Part shown: positions 16,700-57,666 of the stretch, piece after piece
How positions within the stretch are numbered: the stretch's first letter is position 1
Layout of the letters: each line of letters opens with the position of its first letter
DNA from: Phycisphaerae bacterium
GTDB lineage: Bacteria > Planctomycetota > Phycisphaerae > UBA1845 > Fen-1342
Assembly (NCBI GenBank): GCA_963675745.2
Contig: CAXXWX010000021.1
Span: forward strand, 1-64,000
Length of the DNA: 64,000 nucleotides
Direction: 5' to 3'
Translations under genes and position numbers: made by a program
The notes under the pieces: model-generated
Database searches by the model: none
What the model saw: the letters and a program-made list of their open reading frames with translations, nothing else
What the model was told of the DNA's origin: nothing

Positions 16700-18754
16700 A
16701 TGAATCCACGGCTCATCGGCTTTTTTGTCGCTTTGGCCGCAACGACCGGCGCGCTCGCTCAGCAGTCGCCGACCGACATTGACGTCACCCGCGTGGCGAT
16801 TTTCTCCAGCGGTGTGGCGTTCTTCGAGTGCGATGGCAGCGTCGTGGATAATGCCTCCGTCGAGCTCAAGTTCCGCACCGACCAGATCAACGACATCCTC
16901 AAGTCGCTGGTCGTGCAGGATTATGACGGCGGCAGCATCAGCGTCGTCAGCTACGCCTCGCGCGATCCGGTCGAGAAGACGCTCAAGAGCTTCGCGGTCG
17001 ACATCACCGGCAAGCCCACTTTCGGCCAACTGCTTGACCAACTGCGCGGCGAACCCGTCAGCATCGCCGGCCCGCGCAAGATGACCGGCGTGATCGTCGG
17101 CGTCGAGTCGACAACCCGCGTGGTCGACGACCAGGTAATCGAAACCCAGTATGTCAATGTGCTGACGGACGACGGCATGCAGGCCTTGCCGATCCACGAG
17201 CTCACCGGCGTGGAGCTGACGAACCCGAAGATCGCCCACGAGCTTCAGGCCGCCCTGGCCACTCTCGCCGCCGGCCGTGACGCCGACAAGAAGACCGTGG
17301 TCATCAACTTCGACGGTCAGGGTCGCCGACGCGTGCGGGCGATGTATCTGCTCGAAGCCCCGATCTGGAAAACGAGCTATCGGCTGGTGCTCTCAGATGA
17401 GGAAGAGCCATATTTGCAGGGCTGGGCCACGGTTGAAAACGCGACCGAAGAAGATTGGGACAACGTGCAGTTGTCGCTCGTCTCGGGTCGGCCGATTTCA
17501 TTCCGGATGGACCTCTACACGCCGCTGTACGTGCCGCGTCCGGTCGAAGAGTTGGAGCTCTACGCCTCGTTGCGGCCGCCGACGTTCGCCGGCGCGTTTG
17601 AGATGGAGGCCGACGCCAATGGGGACGGACTGCGGGACAAGTCGGTGCCCGCCGCGGCGCGGCGTATGCCGTCGCGTGGGCGAATGGCGGCTAAATCTCC
17701 CATGGTGCTGCTGGAAACTCCCTCAGCGGGAGATGCCATGTTGGGCGAGGGGTTCATCCCCGCCGCCGGCGGCGTCGCGTCGGTTGCGGCGGCTGAGGAA
17801 GCCGGCGAGCTGTTCCAGTACGTGCTCACCGAGCCGGTCACGATCGCGCGCCAGCATTCCGCCATGCTGCCGATCGTCACGCAGGACGTAACCGCCGAGA
17901 AGGTCAGCATCTTTAACGCCAACACGCACCCCAAGCACCCCATGAACGGTCTGATGCTGGATAACTCCACCGGTCTGAGCCTGATGCAGGGGCCCATCAC
18001 GGTTTTCGACGGCGGCATCTACGCCGGTGACGCCAAGCTGCCCGATCTCCAGCCCGGCGAGAAACGTCTGCTGGCCTACGCCCTCGATCTGCCGGTCGAA
18101 GTCGCCACCAAGCAGGATTATGTCGAGAACGAAGTTCGCCTGCGCATCGTCAAGGGCACGCTCTATCGCCAGCTCAAGTCCGTCGATCGTCGTGAATACA
18201 CGATCAAGAACAAGGACACCGATGATCGCACCGTCCTGATCGAACAGCCGCAGCCGGCCGGCTGGACTCTGCTCGAGCCGGCGGAGCCGTTCGAAAAGAC
18301 CGCCGACACGCTGAGATTCAAAGTCGCCGTGACGGCGGGTAAGTCGGCGACGCAAAACGTCAGCCTTGAACGCGTTCGCGAAGAATCGGTGTCCCTGGGC
18401 AACGTGGGCCTTGACCACATTCGCATTTATCTGCGCAGCCGCGTGATTTCACCGGCACTCAAGGAGCAGATGCAGCGCATCATCGCGATGCGCACCGAGC
18501 TGGACCGTATCGGTGCCGAGCGCAACGAAGCCGAGCGCAAGGCACAGACGGCGGTCGAAGACCAGGAGCGCATTCGTCGCAATCTCGAAACCCTGCGCGG
18601 CAACACCGACCAGCACACACGCCAACTGCGCAAGTTCGACGAATTCGAAGACCAGATCGAGCAATGGCGCGCCCGCGTTGACGAGCTGGCCAGGCAGGAG
18701 CAGGAGAAGCGTCAGGCCCTCGAGGACTATCTCCTGGGGCTGAATGTGGAATGA
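16700..18754 (+). CDS. Secreted DUF4139-type protein with C-terminal coiled coil
   Basis: Signal peptide, VTRVAIFSSGVAFF, INDILKSL, WKTSYRL, LQGWATVEN...DWDNVQLSLVSGRP. Confidence 0.75.
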   Translation: MNPRLIGFFVALAATTGALAQQSPTDIDVTRVAIFSSGVAFFECDGSVVDNASVELKFRTDQINDILKSLVVQDYDGGSISVVSYASRDPVEKTLKSFAVDITGKPTFGQLLDQLRGEPVSIAGPRKMTGVIVGVESTTRVVDDQVIETQYVNVLTDDGMQALPIHELTGVELTNPKIAHELQAALATLAAGRDADKKTVVINFDGQGRRRVRAMYLLEAPIWKTSYRLVLSDEEEPYLQGWATVENATEEDWDNVQLSLVSGRPISFRMDLYTPLYVPRPVEELELYASLRPPTFAGAFEMEADANGDGLRDKSVPAAARRMPSRGRMAAKSPMVLLETPSAGDAMLGEGFIPAAGGVASVAAAEEAGELFQYVLTEPVTIARQHSAMLPIVTQDVTAEKVSIFNANTHPKHPMNGLMLDNSTGLSLMQGPITVFDGGIYAGDAKLPDLQPGEKRLLAYALDLPVEVATKQDYVENEVRLRIVKGTLYRQLKSVDRREYTIKNKDTDDRTVLIEQPQPAGWTLLEPAEPFEKTADTLRFKVAVTAGKSATQNVSLERVREESVSLGNVGLDHIRIYLRSRVISPALKEQMQRIIAMRTELDRIGAERNEAERKAQTAVEDQERIRRNLETLRGNTDQHTRQLRKFDEFEDQIEQWRARVDELARQEQEKRQALEDYLLGLNVE

Positions 18755-18759
18755 TGCGG

Positions 18760-18869
18760 GAATGCAGAATGCGGAATGAGGAATGGAGAATGAAGAAACG
18801 CGCCGGCGACAACTAGACGCCGGATCGCCGGTTTCTGCATTCCTCATTCTTCATTCTGCATTCTCATTC
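18760..18869. repeat. Inverted pair of GAATGNN heptamer arrays forming a hairpin between convergent genes
   Basis: Five GAATGNN units (18760-18794) plus GAAAC face GTTTC plus about five NNCATTC units (18836-18869). Confidence 0.85.
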
Positions 18870-27823: not shown

Positions 27824-28067
27824 CGAGAAGCTCCCTGATTGAGTGGACTGGCTCTGTGGACTGCACAATTCTATTGCCGCCCGTGCCTCTGTCAAATCGC
27901 CGGCCCGCTACGAGAAATCGCGCGCCGGCAGCGGTCCACCCGGCCCGGTTACCACGGTCCGGGCCGCCTCATCGCGGCGGGTGCAAGGCAGCCTGACGGA
28001 CAAAGTCGGCTGACGGACAAAGTAGCGGCCTGCGCCTCGCAGGCCGTCGGCGCTGCGAGTGTCATAC

Positions 28068-28340
28068 GCCATGTGGGTGCCCCACGCCTTGGGGTGGGGG
28101 ACTGACTTGCGCAACGTGCGAGATCAAGCGCCTTCCCGCGTGAGATCAGTCCCCCACGGCAAGCCGCGGGGCACCCACATGCGCGCCGCGAGATCAGTCC
28201 CCCGCGGCGAGCCACGGGGCACCCACATGCGCGCCGTAAGATCAGTCCCCCGCGGCGAGCCACGGGGCACCCGCACGCGCGCCGTAAGATCCGTCCCCCA
28301 CGGCAAGCCGTGGGGCACCCTCATGGCAAGCCGCGGGCAC
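28068..28340. repeat. Array of 48-bp palindromic (REP-like) units: four direct copies plus one inverted copy
   Basis: AGATC[A/C]GTCCCCCRCGGCRAGCC...GGGGCACCC starts at 28143, 28191, 28239 and 28287; inverted copy at about 28068-28107. Confidence 0.9.
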
Positions 28341-28363
28341 CCGCAGGCAGTGTGCGCCGGTTG

Positions 28364-31300
28364 TCAGCAGAAATCGCGCGATGAGTGCCGCACTTTGCCG
28401 ACAAGCTCTGACAGATCGTGCAGCCGGCTTACCTGAACGTGGATTACCTTGCCTTGGCGTTCCACTACTCCATCAGCGACCACGGCGATCTTGTGCCGGG
28501 TCTTGCGCCCCTCGCGATCCCATACTTGCGGACGGATGATCAGGTTGGCCATCCCGGTCTCGTCCTCCAGCGTCATGAACACCATGCCCTTGGCGGTCAT
28601 CGGCCTCTGGCGCACCGTGACCAGTCCGGCCACTCTGATGCCGCGTCCGTGCCGGGTTGCCTTTAGCTTTGCGTTGGGCGTGACTTTCAATCGCCGCAAT
28701 TCTTCCCTGACCAGTTCAATCGGATGAGCGTTGAGCGACATTCCGAGCGCGTCGTAGTCATGTTCGACGGTTTCGGCCAGCGTCATCGCCGGCAGCTTGG
28801 CGGATTGTTCCGCGGGCTCCAGGTCCGCGAACAAACTCTGCTGCTGACGATCCAACGCCAGAATCTGCCATAACACCTGTCGGCGATCGAGCCCCAGCGA
28901 CCGAAAAGCGTCGGCGGCCGCGAGTCGCACAAGCGTCTCACGTGAAACATCATCACGCCGGGCCAATTGGCGGATCGATGTAATCGGGCCTTCGCGCCGG
29001 GCGGCCTCGATGCCGGCGACCTTGTCGGCACTAAGCCCGCGCACAATACGCATACCCAGCCGCACCGCCGGCCCACCCGCGCCCCAACCAGCCGGATCCC
29101 GCGTGTGCGTGTGCCACGGCTCTGTGAGCCGTGCTGTGCTGCCGCGAGAGAAACACGGCTCACAAAGCCGTGGCACCCCCCTCGTGACCTCGTGCCCCCG
29201 CTGCCTTGCTGCCTCGTTGCCTTGTTGCCTCGTTGCCTCGCTGCCTTGCTGCTTTGTGGCCTTGCTGCCTTGTTCCCTCGTGGCCTCGTGGCCTCGTGGC
29301 CTTGTGGCCTCCTTCCCCTCCAACGCACAATCATACCCACTCCAATTCACATCCACCGGCCGCACCGCGACGCCGTGGGCCAGCGCGTCACGCACGAGTT
29401 GCGCCGGGGTATAAAACCCCAACGGCTGGGCGTTGATCAATGCCGCCAGAAACGCCGCCGGGTGATAGCGCTTGAACCAGCAGGATGCATAGACCAACAG
29501 TGCAAACGAGGCGGAGTGACTCTCAGGAAAGCCGTATTCGGCAAACCCGCTGATCTGTTTAAAGACGGCCTCGGCGAACTCGCGTGAGTATCCGTTGATA
29601 AGCATGCCCTTCATCAATCGGGTTTGAAATGGGCTCAGATCGCCATGGCGTTTCCAGGCCGCCATTGCCCGCCGCAATTGGTCGGCCTCGCCGGGGGTGA
29701 AGTTGGCGGCGACGACCGCGAGCTTCATCACCTGTTCCTGAAACAGCGGCACGCCGAGCGTCTTTTCCAGCACCGCCTTGATACGTTCATCCGGATACCA
29801 GACCGGCTCCAGCCCGTCACGGCGGCGCAGGTACGGATGAACCATGCCACCCTGGATCGGTCCCGGCCGCACAATCGCCACCTCGATCACCAGGTCATAA
29901 AAACAGCGCGGCTTCAAACGCGGCAACATGCTCATCTGCGCCCGGCTCTCGATCTGAAAGACGCCGACGGTGTCAGCGTCGCAGATCATGTCGTAGACGC
30001 GGGGGTCTTCGGGGGGGATGGAGGAGAGGGAACAGGGAACGGGGAACGGGGAACGGGGAACGGGGAACGGGGAACAGGGAACGGGGAACGGGGAACGGGG
30101 AACGGTGGCGGGGGGGGCTAGGTGGGGGGTGTGCGTAGCTTGTTGATCAGGGCTTGGAGCATGCGCGCGATTTCGTGGATCAGATCCGGCAGTTGGTTGG
30201 CTGTTGGGAGCAGCTTGAGTTCCTGGGCTATGATTAGCTGCGTTTCCAATTCCGCAAGCGAACCCCGCGCTATGGTGAGGAAGTGGATGTAGTCCTTTCG
30301 GCTCTGACGAGCATTGCCTTCCGCAATGTTGCTCGGAATCGAGACGGCGGCACGCCTGATCTGGCTCGTGAGTCCGAACCGTTCGCCCTCGGGCATCTGG
30401 CTTGTCAGTTTGTAGACGGTCTTGGCCAACGTGATTCCCTTCTTCCAAACGATCAGATCGCGAAAGTCCACTATGTTTGCCATACTTGCACCTTTCAAGT
30501 TCAGATACCAGCGAATCACCAATCCCCCCGCGCGCAACAACCCGTTCCCCGTTCCCCGTTCCCCGTTCCCTGTTCCCTGTTCCCCGTTCCCCGTTCCCTG
30601 TTCCCTCCATCATCCGAAACATCCCACTAATCGCCGTCAGCATCCCCAGGGCCAGGCAGTCCACTTTCAAGATCCCCAATGCATCGATATCGTCCTTATC
30701 CCACTCGATAAATGTGCGGCCGGGCATGGCGCCGTTCAGCAGGGGGACGATCTCACACAGCGGCGTCTCGGTGATTACAAAGCCGCCGACGTGCTGGGAG
30801 AGATGACGTGGAAAACCCGCCACCTGGCGCACCAGCCGCAGGACCATCTGCACAGTGCGATTGTCAGGATTGAGGCCGGCGGCGCGGATCGCATCGGTGG
30901 GCAGCTCGTTATCCCACCACTCGGTCATCTTTGACATGCGCTCGACGCGATCGAGCGACAGGCCGAGGGCCTTACCGATGTCACGGACGGCCGAGCGCGC
31001 GTGATAGGTGATCACCTCCGCCGTAATCGCCGCCCGTTCGCGGCCGTACTTCCGGTAGATGTATTGGAAAACCTCCTCGCGGCGGTTGTGCTCGAAATCA
31101 ACGTCGATGTCCGGCGGCTCATTGCGTTCCTTGCTGACGAAGCGCTCGAAGAGCAGATCGATGCGCGCCGGATCAACCGCGGTGACGCCCAGGCAGTAAC
31201 ACACCGCGGAGTTCGCCGCCGACCCGCGCCCCTGGCACAAGATGCCGCGGCCGCGGGCAAAACGCACCAGATCCCAGACGGTCAGGAAGTAATACTCGTA

Positions 31301-32323
31301 GCGCAGCTCCTCGATGAGCTTAAGCTCGGCGGTGAGCAGATCGCGCACCTTGTCCGGGATGCCGTCGGCATAACGCCGCGCCGCGCCCGCCCAGGTCAGT
31401 TGTGCGAGGTATTCGATCGGTGACAGGTCATCCGGGCACACCTCGTGGGCGTATTCGTACTTGAGCTCATCAAGACTGAAGGTGCAGCGCTCGGCAATCT
31501 CGATCGTGCGCTCCAACAGATCGGTATGCGCCGCGTAACGCCGCCCGGTTTCATCCAGTGTCCGCAAGTGTCGCTGAGCGTTTGGGAACAACCGGCGGCC
31601 GGCGTCATGGATCGTGCATTTCTCACGCACACAGGTGAGCGCGTCCTGCAAGTAACGCCGGGCCGCATCGTGATAGTGAACATCATTGGCGGCGACCAGC
31701 GGGATGTTGACCTGGTTGGACAACGCGTGTAGCCACGCAAGGCGCTCCGTGTCGGGCTGCTCATACGCGAGTTCGGCGGCCAGATACACATCGTGCCCAA
31801 AGAGCTCGCGGTAAGCGTGGTAATGTCGAATGTCCGCGGCTGACGCGACCGGCCGGCGCGGCGGCGTGACGATCGCGATCAAGCCGCTGGCCAGCGCGGC
31901 CACATCATCAAACGTCAGGTGACATTGCCCCTTCTTGACACGCAAACGCCCCCGCGTGATCAGACGCGACAGCCGTCCATACGCAGCGCGATCCGGCGCC
32001 AACAGCACAACGGGCGGCGCATCAACCGGCGTGATCTCGGCCCCAACGATCAGATGCAGATTGTGATGCTGCGCCGCAATGTGTGCCCGTACCACGCCGG
32101 CCAGAGAGTTTCTGTCCGTGATCGCCAACGCGGCGTAGCCCAACTCGGCGGCGCGCTCGACCAGCTCTTCCGGGTGCGACGCGCCGCGCAGAAATGAGAA
32201 GTTCGTCAAACAGTGCAACTCGGCGTACGCGGTCGATACCGGTGAGCGGCGGTGGGATGTTGTCTCGGTGGTGACGCTATGGCAGGGATGAGAATGCCGC
32301 TTCTGATTCGCCGGGGCTGGCAT
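28364..32323 (-). CDS. dnaE2: Error-prone DNA polymerase DnaE2 with two in-frame insertions
   Basis: YAELHCLTNFSFLRGASHPEEL, CQGRGSAANS, PPDIDVD, PRHLSQHVGG, WDKDD..LKVDCLALGML, YGFPESH, RQRPMTAKGMVFMTLEDETG, C-terminal SRDF. Confidence 0.95.
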   Translation of the reverse strand: MPAPANQKRHSHPCHSVTTETTSHRRSPVSTAYAELHCLTNFSFLRGASHPEELVERAAELGYAALAITDRNSLAGVVRAHIAAQHHNLHLIVGAEITPVDAPPVVLLAPDRAAYGRLSRLITRGRLRVKKGQCHLTFDDVAALASGLIAIVTPPRRPVASAADIRHYHAYRELFGHDVYLAAELAYEQPDTERLAWLHALSNQVNIPLVAANDVHYHDAARRYLQDALTCVREKCTIHDAGRRLFPNAQRHLRTLDETGRRYAAHTDLLERTIEIAERCTFSLDELKYEYAHEVCPDDLSPIEYLAQLTWAGAARRYADGIPDKVRDLLTAELKLIEELRYEYYFLTVWDLVRFARGRGILCQGRGSAANSAVCYCLGVTAVDPARIDLLFERFVSKERNEPPDIDVDFEHNRREEVFQYIYRKYGRERAAITAEVITYHARSAVRDIGKALGLSLDRVERMSKMTEWWDNELPTDAIRAAGLNPDNRTVQMVLRLVRQVAGFPRHLSQHVGGFVITETPLCEIVPLLNGAMPGRTFIEWDKDDIDALGILKVDCLALGMLTAISGMFRMMEGTGNGERGTGNRERGTGNGERVVARGGIGDSLVSELERCKYGKHSGLSRSDRLEEGNHVGQDRLQTDKPDARGRTVRTHEPDQACRRLDSEQHCGRQCSSEPKGLHPLPHHSAGFACGIGNAANHSPGTQAAPNSQPTAGSDPRNRAHAPSPDQQATHTPHLAPPATVPRSPFPVPCSPFPVPRSPFPVPCSLSSIPPEDPRVYDMICDADTVGVFQIESRAQMSMLPRLKPRCFYDLVIEVAIVRPGPIQGGMVHPYLRRRDGLEPVWYPDERIKAVLEKTLGVPLFQEQVMKLAVVAANFTPGEADQLRRAMAAWKRHGDLSPFQTRLMKGMLINGYSREFAEAVFKQISGFAEYGFPESHSASFALLVYASCWFKRYHPAAFLAALINAQPLGFYTPAQLVRDALAHGVAVRPVDVNWSGYDCALEGKEATRPRGHEATREQGSKATKQQGSEATRQQGNEAARQRGHEVTRGVPRLCEPCFSRGSTARLTEPWHTHTRDPAGWGAGGPAVRLGMRIVRGLSADKVAGIEAARREGPITSIRQLARRDDVSRETLVRLAAADAFRSLGLDRRQVLWQILALDRQQQSLFADLEPAEQSAKLPAMTLAETVEHDYDALGMSLNAHPIELVREELRRLKVTPNAKLKATRHGRGIRVAGLVTVRQRPMTAKGMVFMTLEDETGMANLIIRPQVWDREGRKTRHKIAVVADGVVERQGKVIHVQVSRLHDLSELVGKVRHSSRDFC
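29111..29307. repeat. Octamer tandem array (16 units, consensus CCTYGYKG, 29180-29307) plus a 23-bp inverted repeat (29111-29133/29154-29176) inside dnaE2
   Basis: Read directly from the sequence; translates to the low-complexity EATRPRGHEATREQGSK... stretch in DnaE2. Confidence 0.9.
30028..30104. repeat. 11 x GGGAACR heptamer array (3-prime arm in the dnaE2 mRNA)
   Basis: 77 bp of uninterrupted GGGAAC[A/G] units. Confidence 0.97.
30118..30483 (-). CDS. Four-helix-bundle protein (23S rRNA intervening-sequence protein / bAvd-like), nested in dnaE2 in the +1 frame
   Basis: FRDLIVWKK, ERFGLTSQIRRAAVSIPSNIAEG, FLTIARGSLAELETQL. 121 aa, with its own GAAAGGT RBS-like site before ATG 30483. Confidence 0.92.
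   Translation of the reverse strand: MANIVDFRDLIVWKKGITLAKTVYKLTSQMPEGERFGLTSQIRRAAVSIPSNIAEGNARQSRKDYIHFLTIARGSLAELETQLIIAQELKLLPTANQLPDLIHEIARMLQALINKLRTPPT
30543..30605. repeat. 9 x YGTTCCC heptamer array (reverse complement of the 30028-30104 unit)
   Basis: 63 bp of uninterrupted [C/T]GTTCCC units. Confidence 0.97.
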
Positions 32324-32373
32324 GACTGCTGTCCGCAGAGCTTGATCTGAGGCTGATATCGCTCTGTGACAGC

Positions 32374-32392
32374 ATACCTAACAAATACCTAA
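32374..32392. promoter_or_regulatory. Candidate operator: ATACCTAA direct repeat with 11-bp period upstream of dnaE2
   Basis: ATACCTAA-CAA-ATACCTAA in an AT-rich patch about 50 bp upstream of the dnaE2 ATG. Confidence 0.35.
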
Positions 32393-32434
32393 TATACAAG
32401 GGGGGTGCGGCGGTGGCGCAAACGATGCCGATTG

Positions 32435-32992
32435 TCAGTAGTCCTTGAAAGGCGTGCCCTGAGAGTCGACATCCGTCGTGTTGGCGATGATTTGGCCGGT
32501 CTCAGGATTGTAGATCCAGCCCTTCTTGTTGCCCTCGTGTTCGTCGAGGGGCAGTTCGGTGTCGAAATCGACCTCGTCGGCCTTCTCCGCAGCGTTTATT
32601 CCCACGTTCAGACGTGGTATTCCTCGAAGATATGGACCGAAGAGACGCGAAGACGTGTGGGATCCGGTCACGCCCGTAACTGACGAATACTCAAGCAGTT
32701 GGGCGTAAAAGTCCTCCTCGTCGCCATTACCCTTCTGTGAGCCATCGATCTTATGGTAGCCCGGAAACGCGCCCGCGTGCTCGGCGGCATACAGGGCGAT
32801 AGCCGACCGCAGGGCGCTTAGATTTCCACGCAACGCCGACTCCGACGCGGCGGATGTACCCTGGCTCAACCTGGGGACGGCGATGGCTGCCAGAACGCCG
32901 ATAATAACAATGACAACGACCAGTTCGACAAGTGAGAACCCCAGTTTCCGAATTAACGCTCTACCCACACGCAATCTCCGGTATGCCCGCAT
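32435..32992 (-). CDS. Prepilin-type (pseudopilin GspG-like) protein
   Basis: GFSLVELVVVIVIIGVLAAIAVPR, LRSAIALYAAEH, FGPYL, GWIYNPETGQI. Confidence 0.88.
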   Translation of the reverse strand: MRAYRRLRVGRALIRKLGFSLVELVVVIVIIGVLAAIAVPRLSQGTSAASESALRGNLSALRSAIALYAAEHAGAFPGYHKIDGSQKGNGDEEDFYAQLLEYSSVTGVTGSHTSSRLFGPYLRGIPRLNVGINAAEKADEVDFDTELPLDEHEGNKKGWIYNPETGQIIANTTDVDSQGTPFKDY

Positions 32993-33297
32993 ACAATCTC
33001 GGTCTAGAGCATTCACGACCTTAATAGTCACGTTCGCGTCAGATCACCTCACCGCCGGATTAGCCGCGATGACGCTTGCGTATGCACGCCCGCGAGGCGT
33101 ATCATCAACGTAAGATCAGGCTGCAACTGTCGTTGAGCAGAGATCACTGGCTATACGTCAGATGGCCAGACGTGTGCGGCGTTGGCAGGACGCCGCGCGC
33201 TTGTGGATTCCGGGCTTGTTCCTGGACCGCCACTGCTCGCTCAACATCGCGTGGACGTAGCAGTGCGGGCACAAACAACGGGGGAGGGCGCCTCGAG

Positions 33298-57385: not shown

Positions 57386-57655
57386 CTGACCCGCGCGTCC
57401 GGCGAACGATCCGGTGTACCCACTCGAATCTCAGATCCCGAATCTCAGATCTCAGATCCCGAGTCTCGAATCTCAAATCTCGAATCTCAAGTCTGAGCAC
57501 AAGAGACTGACCCGCGCGTCCGACGAACGCACGGGTCAGCTCTGGTGGAGAATCCGATTGCGCGACTTCACGGCGTCACTCGCCGCGCCGCGCTGGACAC
57601 GGCGTCACTCGCCGCGCCGCGCTGGACACGGCGTCACTCACCGCGCCGCGCTGGA
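57386..57655. repeat. Composite repeat patch: 10 heptamers (consensus TCRRATC, 57424-57493) between two CTGACCCGCGCGTCCGRCGAACG repeats, then a 3 x 29-bp tandem repeat (57569-57655)
   Basis: Read directly from the sequence. Confidence 0.88.
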
Positions 57656-57666
57656 TAGGGCGGGAA

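Follow-up and report, generated by a model that had tools for sequence, protein, structure and literature searches.

A four-helix-bundle gene nested within dnaE2 of a Phycisphaerae bacterium between inverted heptamer arrays: a probable dual-coding, read-through cassette

The error-prone polymerase gene dnaE2 of a Phycisphaerae bacterium contains, shortly after the codon for its third catalytic aspartate, an in-frame cassette in which a complete four-helix-bundle gene lies between two inverted arrays of heptamers. Judging from sequence, we consider a dual-coding cassette that is read through the most likely explanation, with a probability of roughly two in three, the products then being a polymerase with a disordered loop of about 190 aa and a small protein. 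In the course of events that we propose, an IVS-type cassette (a four-helix-bundle gene within inverted 7–8-nt arrays) would have entered a variable DnaE2 loop long ago in a planctomycete lineage, the stretch now being dual-coding. Ribosomes would read through the insert to give full-length polymerase in which the third catalytic Asp is followed by a helix and then by the unstructured loop of about 190 aa; the same mRNA would yield the nested protein through an internal start of its own. More tentatively, the stem may form only when ribosomes are sparse and then become an RNase III substrate, and cleavage would in that case mean loss of the message and not splicing. Where the nested gene is lost, in-frame remnants of the arms would stay behind. 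The window, that is, the whole stretch of DNA analyzed, comprises 64,000 nucleotides, and the features that matter here are the following.

28364..32323, (−) strand: dnaE2, error-prone C-family DNA polymerase, 1319 aa, stop-free across all inserts
31097..31117, (−) strand: PPDIDVD motif with the first two catalytic Asp, intact
30659..30670, (−) strand: LKVD motif with the third catalytic Asp, D555; the insert begins 19 residues later
30028..30605, (−) strand: whole cassette, 578 nt, host-frame residues 574–765
30543..30605, (−) strand: 5′ arm, 9 × GGGAACR on the mRNA (exact unit count)
30484..30542, (−) strand: leader with a weak purine-rich RBS-like site (AAAGGTG) before the nested ATG
30118..30483, (−) strand: nested four-helix-bundle gene, PF05635/TIGR02436 (S23p/IVP family), 121 aa, +1 frame, own stop
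30028..30104, (−) strand: 3′ arm, 11 × YGTTCCC on the mRNA, the last unit encoding S-L of the host L-x-x-I-P
29074..29320, (−) strand: second in-frame dnaE2 insert, about 61 aa extra, with one-direction 8-mer arrays and a palindromic unit

The 1319-aa ORF scores 1387.7 bits against the NCBIfam error-prone DNA polymerase model PRK05672 (cut-off 939), and we class it as DnaE2 (ImuC) on this above-cut-off match and its intact catalytic Asp motifs, PPDIDVD being assigned its role through a relative aligned with E. coli DnaE. Purifying selection on the DnaE2 core is strong (pN 0.059 versus pS 0.549 in 15 cassette-bearing alleles). Linkage to imuA-imuB is absent at this dnaE2; an ImuB-like gene sits at a distance, on contig C10 (138160-138528) of the genome analyzed here (G000), and among 28 loci checked, some with short flanks, such a gene adjoins dnaE2 in six. 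In-frame inserts occur at about nine loops in DnaE2 of this group, bringing its length to as much as 1699 aa from the first motif, and the second insert in our gene contains no nested gene. Two repeats flank dnaE2: a tandem array (window 28139-28325, 48-nt unit, 3.9 copies) just downstream, and upstream, at window 32372-32400, the direct repeat TTAGGTAT, a possible operator and the sole match to its pattern in the genome.

The cassette agrees closely with the original prediction, made from this DNA alone, of a roughly 580-bp insert within dnaE2: it measures 578 nt, and the host ORF is stop-free throughout. The insert had been placed about a dozen residues past the catalytic Asp, the actual distance being 19 residues (D555 to G574). 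In the host frame it encodes 192 aa rich in P, G, R and S, standing in place of a linker of about 8 aa, and the stretch from LGMLT to ADT thereby spans 219 aa here versus 35–37 aa in the shortest alleles. The predicted counts of nine and eleven inverted heptamers are exact, and the intact 121-aa ORF in the +1 frame is borne out by a PF05635 score of 133.8 bits (cut-off 33.8), with Xcc0516 (2GSC) as the nearest solved structure (E 3.4e-25). The arms are 96% complementary over 67 nt, in line with the anticipated stem of about 60 bp, and a long-range helix of 63 bp is predicted in the cassette RNA; the predicted fold of the mRNA strand has −310.9 kcal/mol (z −10.5), and none of 20 shuffles did as well. 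Three tandem arm units occurred in none of 50 shuffles of the window. The RBS-like site before the nested gene is present as proposed but weak, and by a loose, uncontrolled pattern a purine-rich site lies upstream of 22 of 26 nested genes. Even with E values of up to 1 allowed, the insert matched nothing in Rfam; 28000-33000 gave no rRNA match, and the 1319-aa protein matched no intein family. The description of the cassette as IVS-like, residing in an mRNA and devoid of its own transposase, reverse transcriptase or intein, holds.

The arrangement recurs. The set of 41 genomes comprised our own and 40 relatives, the closest being Planctomycetota and some of them Phycisphaerae; 16 have a nested gene at the site, 11 have the site without the gene, one has a permuted gene, two are cut off before the site and 11 yielded no dnaE2 locus. 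A further 14 full alleles were found outside this set (six new among 80 genome loci, one each in a phylum and a genus search, five at the 67 measurable of 80 metagenome loci, and one among 32 viral-collection loci), bringing the total to 30, of which 29 are complete; all 29 non-duplicate alleles are in frame and stop-free, with inserts of 186–455 aa. In three genomes a related cassette, likewise in frame and stop-free, occupies a second dnaE2 loop, and the search for other intragenic examples proposed at the outset thus returned many: 30 first-site and three second-site dnaE2 alleles, and other hosts besides. All cassette-bearing dnaE2 alleles have their nested gene in the +1 frame, the only workable one because the other shifted frame holds 2–9 stops. 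The arm unit varies among alleles (GGGAACR, GGGATTNA, GGGACRNA, GGCACGRA and others), while in 29/29 the left arm pairs better with its own right arm than with the median foreign right arm. Some alleles retain arm remnants alone. The suggested orthologue alignment did yield empty alleles, the cassette being absent from 11 of the 27 genomes read at the site, and from 62 of the 67 metagenome loci. Individual alleles depart further from the common layout: L144 has a first-site insert of 455 aa with extra hairpins, and the dnaE2 of L044, a frame of 1748 aa, holds two nested genes as well as numerous arm inserts. In the permuted gene (L049:1395-5357, G023:C12) dnaE2 segments follow one another in the order 1-122, 552-897, 291-544, about 104-309 and 888-1042 within one open frame of 1385 aa; the breaks coincide with insertion loops and junction repeats are absent. 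This may be real or a misassembly, a second genome of the same genus having the normal order.

Both reading frames bear marks of selection. The host-equivalent frame is stop-free in 19/19 nested genes as against 6/58 other family genes of the same relatives (78 family-gene rows, one partial duplicate dropped), and one of these six is itself nested in a methyltransferase-like ORF. T-ending codons before AA, AG or GA, which make host-frame stops, number 0/185 in nested and 149/757 in free genes. Synonymous shuffling predicts 49.4 host-frame stops in 26 nested genes, where there are none, and 165 in 46 free genes above 55 bits, where there are 124; because the free genes too have fewer stops than their shuffled versions, codon-pair bias accounts for part of the deficit, but not for the zero. 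Aromatic residues in the host frame are depleted in nested genes (51 versus 93 expected) and hardly so in free genes (207 versus 214), which suggests selection on a translated loop. The nested protein itself is under purifying selection (pN 0.29 versus pS 0.69 in 23 nested copies), its identity being 59% as compared with 30% for the host-frame peptide, and it has 17 invariant columns in 24 rows where the host-frame peptide has none. An internal TGA breaks the nested gene in 2/33 copies, in both of which the host frame is open. Because the alleles share ancestry, all these counts are non-independent, and the selection statistics and z-scores are too high.

Of the three fates originally proposed for the insert, tolerance as a protein loop is thus favored, and removal or bypass at the RNA level lacks support. 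Alignment places the insertion at a short linker that follows a helix, both in E. coli DnaE and in an empty-allele model, and AlphaFold renders the insert as coil with pLDDT under 50; the full-allele model has pTM 0.43 and an rmsd of about 22 Å to solved DnaE, and the empty-allele control pTM 0.48, the palm being weak in both, which were built on 30-row alignments, and the models do not reveal a core folded around the insert. Speaking against removal, the 3′ arm supplies the conserved Leu of the host L-x-x-I-P motif in 19 of the 23 alleles that were read, its final unit encoding P-x-S/C-L in register. The genome also has one-direction arrays, which form no stem, in frame within dnaE2 and further genes, and 3 of its 128 array loci passed a strict filter (which missed dnaE2 itself) as gene-less in-frame arrays, in hosts whose motifs point to IleRS, ArgRS and a protein kinase. 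In-frame REP inserts of 38 and 81 aa have been reported in dnaE2 (PMC3733652, in the portion available).

What the nested protein does is a separate matter, and the best, if tentative, lead is that it serves as the trans-acting partner of gene-less arrays spread over the genome, as RAYT does for REPINs. It would bind, maintain or copy cognate arms, with dnaE2 as the long-lived refuge of a master copy, a role that is compatible with read-through. The 128 array loci of the genome fall into nine families, and 26 loci hold both orientations of one family. Four PF05635 genes are present, three of them intergenic with stops in the host-equivalent frame; inverted arms from an abundant array family flank three of the four, and arrays of this kind lie upstream of the remaining one. 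Of the 16 genomes with a first-site cassette, 15 have at least one of three G-rich units elsewhere than in the cassette, as has 1 of the 11 that lack a cassette at this site (G012, the bearer of a second-site cassette); the association is a lead only, the three patterns having been derived from the arms. In 12 of the 14 genomes that could be tested, the unit used in the arms outnumbers the other two, in counts that include the arms. In favor of such a partner we also count that Y1 transposase (PF01797) loci have no 7–8-mer arrays nearby (0/36). Against it, the related genomes are not independent, five array families of this genome have no PF05635 gene, no catalytic activity is known for the protein, and arrays and cassette could be gained and lost together for another reason. 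A RAYT as mobilizer was considered and rejected on the same count of 36 PF01797 loci. One RAYT-like gene, so named by its motifs, lies inside a GAATGCA-type array hairpin with terminal repeats of its own (L244, G000:C12:72007-72849). Elsewhere in the window, gene-less heptamer arrays of other families lie at 18754-18869, as an inverted pair directly after a stop codon, and at 57423-57494, and a tandem array with a 29-nt unit (3.2 copies) at 57569-57662.

Other hosts were then considered. Searched as a single sequence, the host-frame peptide retrieved nothing but itself, and a profile of shifted-frame peptides, built mostly from dnaE2 copies, matched 741 cluster representatives. From the best 150 of these, 69 had at least 320 aa, and 68 were scanned (one of 4983 aa was omitted). 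At this peptide level, and among the best 150 of 741, 46/68 matched DNA-methyltransferase models (13 PglX, 2 DUF1156, several below cut-off), the remainder being eight DnaE, eight of other families (one an intein) and six unmatched. At the DNA level, a nested gene in the same frame was found at seven non-dnaE2 loci from the phylum search and at four viral-collection loci. A methyltransferase-like ORF with a nested four-helix-bundle gene (L057 and G036:C108:2188-2415) also has a probable in-frame stretch resembling a Y1 transposase; other weak PF01797 matches fall in open frames of 800–1700 aa.

Such a range of hosts raises the question of whether the cassette has been domesticated as a throttle, in which stem, RNase III and nested protein together limit or time the expression of genes that are risky when over-expressed, namely a mutagenic polymerase and restriction or BREX methyltransferases. 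We regard this as unlikely, even though the preponderance of DNA-methyltransferase and DnaE-family models among the best 150 of 741, the arm complementarity kept in 29/29 first-site alleles (for which read-through alone has no need), an RNase III gene in the genome, and cleavage of the Coxiella IVS stem by RNase III (PMC4990558, partial text) all fit it. REPs, however, accumulate in the same hosts (PMC3733652, in the part at hand), so that the bias could come from loops that tolerate inserts and from weak selection; the profile derives mostly from dnaE2 copies; and many genomes and most metagenome loci do without the cassette, as noted above. Combining throttle and array partner, one could tentatively picture a class of splicing-free parasites, Avd-like cassettes that are dual-coding within genes, whose protein recognizes the arms and maintains or spreads 7–8-mer arrays and whose stem throttles DNA-acting hosts; the dnaE2-resident lineage would then be the master copy for the planctomycete G-rich arrays. 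That the nested protein binds DnaE2 as Avd binds its reverse transcriptase seems very improbable, because the hosts are many and unrelated.

The history of the cassette bears on a further reading, no more probable than the throttle, namely that its location is incidental and that the nested gene is a passive passenger kept for a function unrelated to arms or host. Its arms would then stay matched through template switching at quasi-palindromes. No free-standing copy falls within the cluster of 26 dnaE2-resident proteins, and second-site copies nest inside the first-site group; the dnaE2 copies form one branch (SH-aLRT 87) in a quick tree of 66 rows from which rows under 55 bits were dropped, and dnaE2 residence requires two changes in an 87-row tree (one long row dropped), so that the copies are clustered and at most probably monophyletic. 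On the DnaE2 tree, alleles with and without the cassette are intermixed (seven changes), the comparison for co-descent of nested gene and DnaE2 gives a Spearman coefficient of 0.13 (p 0.18, 21 alleles), and four AU tests do not reject vertical descent (p 0.15–0.36). These sequence relationships fit a single old entry followed by many losses, and homing between dnaE2 alleles may be an alternative; of the mobile cassette originally envisaged the IVS-like anatomy stands, and present-day mobility is at most a possibility, the cassette looking old and tied to its locus. A passive relic accords with the clustering, the unrejected vertical descent and the scatter as repeated loss. Whole-unit replacement in both arms and the match of arms to genome-wide arrays nevertheless exceed what local repair would do, and the cassette has also reached a second dnaE2 loop and several unrelated hosts.

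Removal at the RNA level, by cutting the stem and rejoining the flanks or by ribosome bypass, is in our estimate quite improbable. It would draw on the predicted 63-bp stem, the anatomy shared with 23S IVSs, the RNase III and RtcB genes of the genome and a 3′ arm whose end lies within 44–57 nt of the anchor that follows it in 18 of the 21 alleles, and the open host frame could be a back-up for such a process. The array-bounded segment of 578 nt is not divisible by 3, though, and a predicted cut at the stem base preserves the frame in 3/21 alleles, a noisy figure since the arrays pair in several registers. Excision of the cassette with both arms would leave 27 aa here compared with 35 in the shortest natural alleles; neither a conserved junction nor matched take-off and landing codons were seen in the dnaE2 alleles; and intron models gave no match. 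Strict stop avoidance in a host frame under clear selection, together with aromatic depletion, would moreover be superfluous. In the Coxiella case cutting by RNase III leaves fragments, and the available part of PMC4990558 contains no mention that they are religated.

On the features tested, the cassette falls outside the IVS, REP, Avd, intron and intein classes; by analogy it resembles ORF-bearing IVSs in anatomy and intragenic REPs in how the host copes. Inteins and homing-endonuclease introns are parasite-like inserts in DNA-metabolism genes near polymerase active-site motifs, with full and empty alleles scattered; our cassette has no splicing domain, endonuclease or conserved junction residues and appears to be retained in the protein. 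The 23S rRNA IVSs of Coxiella and Leptospira share with it a PF05635 gene looped out by a long terminal stem and the absence of a mobility enzyme, and that of Coxiella has tandem heptamers upstream of its ORF, which is described as decaying and probably not made (PMC4990558, in part). Here, in contrast, the host is dnaE2 coding sequence and not an rRNA helix, in an mRNA that needs continuity, the insert also codes in the host frame, purifying selection acts on the nested ORF, and the arms consist wholly of tandem arrays whose unit changes between genomes. Intragenic REP/RPE elements and RAYT-bearing REPtrons likewise place in-frame repeats as extra amino acids in dnaE2 and DNA-repair genes and combine a single gene-bearing copy with numerous gene-less ones; those inserts, however, are without a nested gene and have an HUH tyrosine transposase as partner (PMC3733652, in the portion available). 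Unlike in a REPtron or TIRtron, what lies between the arms here is a PF05635 gene, and tandem 7–8-mers make up the arms. The Avd protein of diversity-generating retroelements has a homologous fold and is encoded with an error-prone polymerase (PMC10053308, in part), though the partner here would be a DNA-dependent C-family polymerase and not a reverse transcriptase. The predicted Avd homology holds for the fold but is remote, with scores of 29.8 bits against NF033474 (cut-off 80) and 29.4 against PF22296 (cut-off 40), and 29500-31200 contains no long direct repeat of the template/variable kind. Arrays of G-rich 7-mers, often in inverted pairs and genome-wide, are known from Xanthomonas, Nostoc and Beggiatoaceae, where they are mostly intergenic, as opposed to bracketing a gene and lying within a coding frame; the main texts of PMC4692102 and PMC4679880, as far as available, make no mention of a helix-bundle protein beside them.

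A PF05635 gene nested in coding sequence is undescribed in the literature searched, which lay outside subscription journals and bioRxiv supplements. Such genes have probably been overlooked because gene callers report the host ORF only.

Conserved pairs in which one gene lies wholly within another on the same strand are considered rare in bacteria. The present pair recurs in 30 DNA polymerase alleles beside an active-site motif with selection measurable on both frames, and would mean that a mobile gene can persist within coding sequence without splicing. The alleles form a natural series (full, dead-gene, arms-only, empty, second-site and with several arm units) that may be used to test the function of PF05635 proteins and the origin of bacterial heptamer arrays.

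An assembly chimera produced by the repeats can be dismissed for practical purposes: no contig spans a whole array and the same assembly has frameshifts in dnaE1, but the layout is common to 30 alleles of separate assemblies with differing arm units, and depth is even across the insert (8.2 versus 8.3–8.4 in the flanks, from contigs of run X1, one of three runs of a single study consulted as contigs only). A joint skipping 30107-30577 at first resembled excision at the DNA level, a candidate we rejected as the intervening letters map to a gene-less array on C26. The replicative dnaE1 (G000:C23:224900-229000) is split across frames by apparent single-base indels that are probably assembly errors, and C2 and C22 both hold rtcB and identical array pairs, the result of either a duplicated segment or a strain mixture.
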